A DNA stretch of 64,000 nucleotides. It comes from a virus. The stretch lies in the UHGV virus genome UHGV-0370399; one strand, 5' to 3'. Below are positions 12,523 to 12,666 of the stretch, piece after piece (the stretch's first letter is position 1; each line of letters opens with the position of its first letter). Under the pieces are notes generated by a model. The model was not told where the DNA came from. It ran no database searches and saw only the letters and a program-made list of their open reading frames with translations. Made by a program: the position numbers and the translations under genes.

Positions 12523-12666
12523 AATTATCTTTGTAGATAAGTTATTAAGCTTACCTGTGAGTATGCGACCACAAAGGGTGAAAGGGTAAATTCTAGATTT
12601 AAACCCAAAAAGGCACATCGCTACAGACCTTAAGCAAGTCTGGGTAGCTTATCTACAAAGATAATT
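12523..12666 (+). repeat. Perfect 19-bp inverted repeat (AATTATCTTTGTAGATAAG / CTTATCTACAAAGATAATT) enclosing about 106 nt with internal CAGAC/GTCTG hairpin; candidate structured RNA
   Basis: Reverse complement of 12523-12541 equals 12648-12666 exactly; sits between element A4 and tRNA-Lys. Confidence 0.6.

Follow-up and report, generated by a model that had tools for sequence, protein, structure and literature searches.

Stable small RNAs are known from the tRNA operons of phages. Bacteriophage T4 carries species 1 (rnaC, 139 nt) and species 2 (rnaD, 119 nt), which lie inside the phage tRNA operon, adjoin tRNA genes and are annotated as non-coding, with no function assigned (NC_000866). Another type of small RNA, the Y RNAs, accompanies the Ro60 protein. 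In bacteria and phages, the genes for these RNAs usually lie at most 4 kb from Ro60, on the same strand, and the RNAs possess a long stem formed by their 5' and 3' ends (PMC4201824, PMC12135203). In YrlA and YrlB, as well as in Yrl1 and Yrl2 of the Thermus phage phiLo, an RNA of 100-150 nt is encoded near the Ro60 gene, and the helix formed by its two ends closes a large multiloop. Continuous helices of ~20-24 bp also flank RNAs that are to be released by RNase III, as in rRNA operons and the T7 early region, and the tRNA cloverleaf is built on a four-helix junction. Here, we describe an element that resembles each of these systems in some respects and departs from each in others. It occupies positions 12523-12666 of the viral genome sequence UHGV-0370399, a Felix-O1-like phage that was analysed over its whole length of 64 kb (hereafter, the window). 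Comparative analysis shows that these 144 nt represent a conserved non-coding RNA on the plus strand, predicted to form a four-way junction of the helices P1 to P4 that is clamped by a long terminal helix (P1) and contains a pseudoknot.

The initial annotation had drawn attention to a perfect 19-bp inverted repeat enclosing 106 nt between a structured element, A4, and the gene for tRNA-Lys. Both lengths proved to be correct. AATTATCTTTGTAGATAAG (12523-12541) and 12648-12666 are exact reverse complements of each other, and a repeat search of the window extended the arms to 22 nt (12523-12544 and 12645-12666) with one G·T opposition. Two more U·G pairs in the minimum-free-energy (MFE) fold result in a closing helix of 24 bp. 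The location had also been given correctly, the element starting 1 nt past the 3' GGTCTGG of A4 and ending 4 nt before tRNA-Lys(UUU), whose first nucleotide is 12671. An inverted-repeat scan of the window (minimum seed 12, maximum spacing 400 nt) returned two repeats in total, the one at 12523-12666 being the longer and better, which agrees with the claim that it is unusually long for this genome. By our own estimate, a chance 19-mer at the composition of the window is expected at a rate of ~3e-4 per window. The folding energy, which had been proposed as a check, was -47.8 kcal/mol for the 144-nt element and (-26.6 ± 3.4) kcal/mol for 200 dinucleotide shuffles (z = -6.2), and none of the shuffles was as good.

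The 461 nt around the element show 100% identity with Salmonella phage FSL SP-010 and Escherichia phage ASO1A and 95-100% identity with ~190 Felixounavirus records. BLAST searches detected the element in ~250 phage records belonging to Felixounavirus, Mooglevirus, and Suspvirus, at the same locus throughout. Distant loci were gathered via the protein encoded upstream, a Ro60-like protein described below, and the sequence before each tRNA-Lys gene was then read. This approach added homologues from Yersinia phage P778 and from nine metagenomic Felix-like contigs. The upstream protein of these contigs is just 53-64% identical to that of the window. All related lineages examined, for which we chose 22 representatives, possess a homologue of 135-159 nt. 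The initial annotation had named conservation in related phages as a further check, and the element was indeed found in all close relatives. Like the element of the window, the homologues fold better than their shuffles, with z values from -2.7 to -6.2. BLAST searches started from diverged members (P778, L046, and L042; loci are cited by number where they have to be told apart) revealed no new cultured phages. Within the searches made, the RNA family is apparently restricted to Felix-O1-like phages.

All 22 homologues are followed, at a distance of 1-32 nt, by a tRNA-Lys gene; 21 have tRNA-Lys(UUU), and the remaining one has two genes, Lys(CUU)-Lys(UUU). The upstream neighbour is variable and can be A4, A3, tRNA-Ala at a distance of 3-14 nt (L046, L132, and L045), or other sequence. 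The gene order is largely conserved among lineages and reads Asp-(Ala)-element-Lys-(Leu)-Met-Ile-Arg. Two alleles exist in Felixounavirus, designated T1 (the window, Felix O1 type) and T2. Their cores are ~60% identical; the outer helix ends of T2 are identical to those of T1, and the interior has diverged. In phage bumzen (L004), for instance, identity to the window is 96.9% over the 700 nt upstream, compared with 63.6% for the element. The breakpoints between T1 and T2 are located within P1 (L003/L004 1524-1669 vs. window 12523-12666) in genomes that are otherwise near-identical. The position of these breakpoints suggests a cassette-like exchange with the Mooglevirus/Suspvirus type.

Comparison of the Felix-O1-like phages shows that the predicted fold of the element, not its sequence, is conserved. 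A P1 helix of 16-26 bp can be formed in 22 of 22 homologues, and its sequence is unrelated between distant lineages. Because MAFFT by itself misaligned P1 and P4 across lineages, we used a hand-curated, N-padded block alignment of 17 distinct sequences that comprised P1, the junction 7-mer, and P4, and that MAFFT left unchanged. Standard pairs filled 90.8% of the cells, a value somewhat inflated by the choice of P1 registers, versus 58.3% in column shuffles, with 0 of 500 shuffles reaching the observed value. This choice has less influence on the slid-register controls and on the number of pair types. When the 3' partners were slid by 1-3 columns, 33-41% of the cells were paired. Changes on both sides occurred in 33 of the 39 pairs of the block alignment, and P1 showed such double changes in 25 of its 26 aligned pairs. 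In the P4 stem, which measures 5-6 bp, five of six pairs covary and 94% of the cells are paired. The suggestion of a "fifth structured RNA" in the initial annotation is thus borne out by a structure that is conserved with many compensatory changes across diverged relatives. An inner CAGAC/GTCTG hairpin had also been pointed out; it exists (12624-12628 and 12638-12642) and corresponds to P4. Its supposed kinship with the ends of the A elements, however, is not conserved across relatives. We reject it because the P4 stem varies freely (CAAACC/GGTTTG, CAGTC/GACTG, AAAGTC/GACTTT, and others) while the A elements of the same genomes keep CAGAAGACC...GGTCTGG.

The loop of P4 measures 9 nt and follows the consensus C-Y-U-W-W-G-Y-A-A in all lineages. 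It is complementary to the segment just past the 5' strand of P1, and this complementarity occurs in four covarying forms: GCUUA with UAAGC in the window, L042, L044, and L132; GCUAA with UUAGC in the T2 type and Yersinia phage P778; UUACUA with UAGUAA in L046; and UUGUUCA with UGAACAA in L130. For an unbiased test, 12 independent lineages were searched for the longest Watson-Crick complement of the P4 loop within the 23 nt that follow P1. The lengths summed to 63, compared with a mean of 41.4 under the null model, and none of 20000 simulations reached a sum as high (P < 5e-5). The comparison shows that the P4 loop and the P1/P2 junction form a predicted pseudoknot. The junction between P4 and P1 (J4/1) comprises just 0-2 nt in most lineages, so that P4 can stack on P1.

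RNAalifold, applied separately to the T1 and T2 groups, yielded the same four-way junction of P1, P2, P3, and P4. The P2 helix is less secure than P1 and P4. It shows a compensatory change between the window (GUG/CAC) and L042/L043 (GGGG/CCCC) in the RNAalifold analysis of the T1 group. The G-R-G-U-A-K-G-C motif of its loop is family-wide and always in the 5' half; its other versions are GAGU-GCC, GAGUAGGC, GGGUAGGC, GGGUAUGC, and GGGGUAGC. At the site of P3, L043 has GGGAC/GUCCC, and the P3 of the T2 type contains three covarying pairs. Comparison of the last 12 nt before P4 revealed a run resembling C-N-C-U-A in most lineages (CGCU, CUCUA, CCUUA, CCCUA), which is preceded by GCAC or UCAC and deviates in other lineages (CUCAA, CCUGA, UGUGA, ACCCC). 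The central variable region differs between lineages. No single secondary structure for the central core was derivable across all of them, and only the folds of the individual subgroups are reliable. A T-loop/D-loop elbow between the UUCUAGA of P3 and the GG of the GRGUA motif was considered and discarded, as conservation of the P3 apex is limited to the T1 and T2 types. The parts of the element and its immediate neighbours are listed in Table 1.

Table 1. Parts of the 144-nt element and adjoining features in the window
Feature	Position	Strand	Description
P1, 5' strand	12523-12546	+	24 nt, includes the left arm (12523-12541); 24 bp in the MFE fold
J1/2, GCUUA	12549-12553	+	5' strand of the pseudoknot; pairs with UAAGC (12631-12635) in the P4 loop
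P2 hairpin, UGUG/CACA	12556-12573	+	Loop with G-R-G-U-A-K-G-C motif (GAGUAUGC, 12559-12566); RNAalifold, T1 group
P3 hairpin, GGGU...ACCC	12584-12606	+	Apical UUCUAGA; MFE fold and RNAalifold
J3/4	12607-12623	+	Single-stranded, ends in conserved ...CACAUCGCUA; comparison of lineages
P4 hairpin, CAGAC/GUCUG	12624-12642	+	9-nt loop CUUAAGCAA (12629-12637); loop consensus, stem covariation
P1, 3' strand	12643-12666	+	Includes the right arm (12648-12666); directly abuts P4
tRNA-Lys(UUU)	12671-12746	+	ARAGORN and Rfam; invariant downstream neighbour
Four A elements	11749-11820, 11915-11974, 12304-12376, 12390-12521 (A4)	+	Between tRNAs

The oppositions in P1 comprised 22 G·U and 6 A·C over 12 lineages, and the covariance model of the element scored 137 bits on the plus strand and 40 bits on the minus strand. 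The element contains no conserved open reading frame (ORF). A minus-strand ORF of 107 codons (12295-12618), which some records annotate as a hypothetical protein, has no Pfam match and is absent or truncated in relatives; a protein-coding minus strand was therefore ruled out. No U-tract follows the A+U-rich helix, which continues with UUAAUGG and then the tRNA, and the terminator scan lists no terminator there, so that the terminator option of the initial annotation had to be abandoned. A search with the 4227 models of Rfam, which include ribozymes, riboswitches, tmRNA, 6S, SRP, and Y RNA, gave no match over the element of the window at the gathering threshold or at E <= 10, and none over five diverged homologues at E <= 1. 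Riboswitch features were likewise missing: the tRNA lies 4 nt downstream, and neither a terminator nor an alternative that sequesters a ribosome-binding site is present. Taken together, the excess of G·U over A·C, the lack of a conserved ORF and of a U-tract, and the lack of an Rfam match indicate an RNA gene rather than a terminator, a DNA palindrome, or a mobile element.

Perfect terminal inverted repeats of 19 bp could also mark a feature of the DNA that has no RNA function, such as a palindrome, a cruciform, an origin, or a decayed mobile element of the miniature inverted-repeat transposable element (MITE) type, and a gene for an HNH homing endonuclease (13855-14307) is indeed part of the same cluster. 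We regard this as extremely improbable. G·U pairs maintain the helix, other lineages build it from unrelated sequences, and the interior hairpins and the pseudoknot covary. The way in which the helix is maintained also speaks against the protein-binding palindrome considered in the initial annotation. Moreover, the element is single-copy in the window, its flanks (GGT and TAA) show no target-site duplication, and it occupies a fixed locus in ~250 genomes with no empty site. The compact multi-helix junction with its pseudoknot and few invariant unpaired nucleotides, placed directly between two RNAs that need to be separated, might further be taken for a ribozyme of a new class, able to detach its 5' end from the upstream RNA by cleaving itself. 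Small ribozymes are known to occur beside phage tRNAs. Nevertheless, there is no Rfam ribozyme match even at E <= 10, the core motifs of hammerhead, twister, hatchet, and HDV ribozymes are not recognisable, and we consider a ribozyme very improbable. The element rather represents a previously undescribed RNA family of a known general kind, the stable small RNAs of phage tRNA operons, and is possibly related to Y RNAs. The genome paper on Felix O1 does not mention it (PMC3185647).

Among the described systems, the RNAs of T4 are similar in size and in genomic setting. Since they and the element adjoin tRNA genes, tRNA-processing enzymes can define their ends. The likeness does not extend further: the T4 locus (L049) gives no match to the covariance model of the element, rnaC has a tRNA-like T arm at its end, rnaD folds no better than shuffles, and T4 lacks a pseudoknotted four-way junction with a 22-bp clamp. 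A homology with rnaD, considered on the basis of shared UCCC.UGAGU and GUCGUC motifs, was rejected as the folds differ and the covariance model misses T4. With the tRNA cloverleaf, the element shares the four-helix junction and a 3'-most hairpin, P4, that abuts the terminal helix in the way the T arm abuts the acceptor stem. However, it lacks the T- and D-loop consensus, CCA, and an anticodon arm, and is matched neither by ARAGORN nor by the Rfam tRNA model. Its tertiary lock would be a loop-junction pseudoknot instead of the D-loop/T-loop elbow.

The long terminal helix invites comparison with the processing stems cut by RNase III. P1 comprises 22-24 continuous pairs in the window and thus exceeds the 20 bp that characterise such a substrate. 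A role as a processing element, as contemplated in the initial annotation, would be a secondary property at most; besides the RNase III-sized helix, RNase P has to cut just 4 nt downstream. If it were the sole role, the element would be a cis-acting processing or insulator module, that is, an RNase III site or folding clamp between A4 and pre-tRNA-Lys, with a leader that tunes RNase P and an excised piece that is functionless. This would account for the RNase III-sized P1 in every lineage and for the invariably short distance to tRNA-Lys, as well as for the 1-nt distance to A4 in the window. A structured 5' leader is able to influence how RNase P cleaves in E. coli (PMC8925977). Such a module is nonetheless improbable in our view. 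Neither the conserved four-way junction nor the covarying pseudoknot nor the conserved single-stranded motifs would be required in a processing stem; the other tRNAs of the operon are spaced by 1-10 nt without any such module; and the internal loops and bulges of P1 sit at different places in different lineages. In the element, unlike in RNase III stems, the enclosed RNA and not the stem has a conserved tertiary structure, and cleavage is putative.

The element is part of a plus-strand cluster of 15 tRNA genes (11580-14631), which is preceded by sigma-70-like promoters at 11433 and 11524. An ORF of 471 aa on the plus strand (9999-11414) ends 165 nt before the first tRNA and matches DUF2828, DUF7788, and VWA of Pfam. 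Its AlphaFold model has a predicted local distance difference test (pLDDT) value of 84 and a predicted template modelling (pTM) score of 0.85. The top 11 PDB matches of the model were all Ro60, over the full length and with E values from 2e-8 to 3e-6, and included phiLo Ro60, Xenopus and human Ro60, and Deinococcus Rsr. The product of ORF 9999-11414 is, by its predicted fold, a Ro60 homologue. Relatives are encoded in ~710 phage records, some of which carry the annotation 'Ro-like RNA binding protein'. The orthologue of the Felixounavirus Bas63, gp130, has been reported to be Ro60-like and to act as an anti-defence factor that counters ppl (PMC11482910). The element starts 1.1 kb downstream of this ORF on the same strand.

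Four further structured elements, the A elements, share a 5' CAGAAGACC-N-WWUWCAGCAA and a 3' GGUCUGG. A4 folds into a closing stem, a V hairpin, a T arm, a closed acceptor-like hairpin, and a D arm, the same arrangement as reported for YrlA, a bacterial Y RNA (PMC4201824). Equivalents of the A elements are present in P778, where they possess a covarying helix (GGACUG/CAGUCC), and in other lineages. The Y-RNA-like signatures are carried by the A elements, not by the 144-nt RNA. In some records, A4 is annotated as an intron-containing tRNA-Thr(GGT) (tRNAscan-SE).

The 144-nt RNA might itself be a new type of Y RNA that binds the Ro60-like protein and tethers or gates it, as YrlA, YrlB, and the Yrl RNAs of phiLo do. 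Consistent with this idea, the upstream ORF has the Ro60 fold, the element lies on the same strand within the 4 kb that serve as a criterion in PMC4201824, and a long 5'/3' stem with a large multiloop is also found in the Y-like RNAs of PMC12135203. Some, and only some, homologues contain GCCGAAG (L028/L041) or CACGAAG (L047/L131) after the GRGUAKGC motif, in the 5' half of the multiloop. Among cultured phages, ~250 records have the element and 251 have the Ro60-like gene at an identity of at least 80%. We still consider this rather unlikely. The copy of the window has neither a CGAA motif nor a bulged conserved helix, and it lacks tRNA-like T and D arms (there is no tRNA-like match inside the element). 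The A elements, with their shared motif and with A4 in the YrlA layout, are far better candidates, and the element is missing from most Ro60-like loci.

On balance, we favour the view that the element gives rise to a stable RNA of ~140 nt that is cut from a tRNA precursor and acts in trans as a protein-binding RNA, and we hold this to be probable by a narrow measure. The element would be transcribed as part of the phage tRNA operon and excised by the tRNA-processing machinery. Its 3' end would be generated by the RNase P cut at position +1 of tRNA-Lys, and its 5' end presumably by the cut that frees the upstream RNA, which is tRNA-Ala in three lineages and A4 in the window. The long P1 helix may then shield both ends against exonucleases. 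In the weakest step of the proposal, the RNA would serve as a trans-acting, protein-binding scaffold or decoy within an RNA-centred module for host takeover or counter-defence, which might comprise the Ro60 homologue (9999-11414), the four Y-RNA-like A elements, the tRNAs, and the element. The Ro60-like protein is a candidate partner because of its proximity, the common strand, and the long terminal stem. As the element lacks a conserved Y-RNA motif, this partnership is only a minority possibility, and we would not expect it to hold. A host RNA-processing protein or a tRNA-directed defence protein is another candidate.

Several points weigh against a trans-acting, protein-binding RNA. The stability of the RNA and its processing sites are themselves predictions. 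The Ro60-binding motif GNCGAAN0-1G or CGAA (or GGUCCGA in a bulged helix) is absent from 12523-12666, P1 contains no conserved bulge, and the element does not carry the CAGAAGACC...WWUWCAGCAA...GGUCUGG signature of the A elements. Bas63 gp130 counters ppl on its own when expressed from a plasmid or from T7 (PMC11482910); the anti-ppl activity thus needs no phage RNA, which also speaks against a Y RNA in this position. The pairing percentage of the block alignment was obtained with P1 registers curated with pairing in view. In L047 and L131, the pseudoknot between J1/2 and the P4 loop does not fit, and the best 6-nt complement of the loop is found elsewhere in the core. A strict structural descriptor found no copy in 75 distant Ro60-like viral loci (L055-L129) or in L035-L039 and L048, and the covariance model found none in the same loci and L133. 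L055 has no gap before tRNA-Lys, and L133 is without tRNA-Lys(UUU). The RNA family is, as judged from these searches, much narrower than the Ro60-like protein family. Finally, all loci were collected either through the Ro60-like gene or through similarity to the element, and their co-occurrence is for this reason no independent test.

The invariant linkage to tRNA-Lys allows for another function, in which the RNA would be a decoy or inhibitor of host nucleases directed at tRNA-Lys(UUU), for example PrrC, RloC, or PARIS-type enzymes, and would be kept beside the replacement tRNA-Lys of the phage. tRNA-Lys is a frequent target of these nucleases. The P4 loop begins with C-U-U like the anticodon loop of tRNA-Lys, and the contrast between the diverged T1/T2 elements and their near-identical upstream regions would be expected under an arms race. 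We judge a nuclease decoy to be quite improbable, however. Outside the Felix type, the P4 stem never follows the anticodon stem of the cognate tRNA-Lys. Its loop has 9 nt instead of 7 and is tied up in the pseudoknot, and the linkage may be no more than a consequence of the largely conserved gene order. Mimicry of the anticodon arm was rejected on these grounds: the P4 hairpin of the window (CAGAC-CUU...) resembles the tRNA-Lys arm (GCAGA-CUUUUAA), and the likeness is gone in every other lineage.

A broader proposal, which we offer as a tentative and rather doubtful one, is that the element founds a phage class of pseudoknotted, cloverleaf-shaped small RNAs that is coupled to tRNA-Lys(UUU) and acts in a tRNA-centred arms race. 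Its members could be inhibitors or decoys for nucleases targeting tRNA-Lys or for RNA-repair factors, or motif-less partners of Ro60. If this were true, selection by host defences would lie behind the strong divergence of the T1 and T2 alleles.

Felix O1 is a classical phage that is heavily used for Salmonella typing and biocontrol. The ~430 nt from tRNA-Asp to tRNA-Lys and several other spacers of the cluster are unannotated or misannotated, for example as hypothetical proteins or as an intron-containing tRNA-Thr. One of these annotation gaps now holds a structured RNA family with a pseudoknot supported by covariation, beside a Ro60 homologue for which experiments have shown that it defeats a bacterial defence (PMC11482910). 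The family is a candidate for inclusion in Rfam and in the annotation of phage genomes. Together with the four A elements and the tmRNA-like tag RNA described below, the element forms a testable set of candidate RNAs for the role of phage Ro60 and the purpose of the tRNA cluster.

Further features were observed in the cluster. A tmRNA-like tag frame on the plus strand (12998-13033; GCA AAC GAC AAU GUU UUU CUG GCA GUA GCU UGA UAG) encodes ANDNVFLAVA followed by two stop codons; the tag of E. coli tmRNA is ANDENYALAA. The frame is preceded by a near-consensus sigma-70 promoter (11 of 12 matches) at 12920-12948 and is kept in the Felix, Moogle, Susp, and L042 types, where changes are synonymous or affect the stop codons. 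Rfam returned only sub-threshold tmRNA matches for it, ARAGORN called no tmRNA, and no tRNA-like domain was recognisable at 12998-13033. The possibility that the element and this tag frame are parts of a permuted or two-piece tmRNA was discarded, as three tRNAs and the promoter lie between them and the acceptor-like stem of A4 lacks G3·U70.

Two unannotated sequences resembling tRNA or tmRNA were noted at homologous loci. In L044, a tRNA-like or mini-tmRNA-like sequence (GGGAAUUCC...GGUUCCCGCCA; 8174-8254) is located just upstream of the element, and in P778 (L040), a 140-nt sequence (8009-8149) has a T arm and a weak tmRNA match. Between tRNA-Asp and A3 of the window (12247-12300, plus strand), the hairpins GAGAGGGCU-AUUU-AGCCCCUCCC and CUUAAAGGG...CCUUUAAAGG, the latter around a UUCUUACGAGUAU loop, are conserved, with compensatory differences in L042 and a similar ...UUUUACGAGGG... 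motif in P778. A tRNA-like sequence at ~13402-13480 on the plus strand (GGCAUGAG...CCUCCAAAACC...GGUUCAACUCC...CCCAUGCCA, with the flanks AAGACUCU and AAGUCUU) was not called by ARAGORN and matched the tRNA-Sec model of Rfam weakly (21 bits); close copies occur in Moogle, L042, L045, L047, P778, L131, and L132. A second long hairpin with a stem of ~26 bp (13746-13842, plus strand; z = -5.3) is situated just upstream of the HNH ORF. It was matched weakly, and purely as a long hairpin, by the covariance model of the element and by the plant miRNA-precursor models of Rfam.

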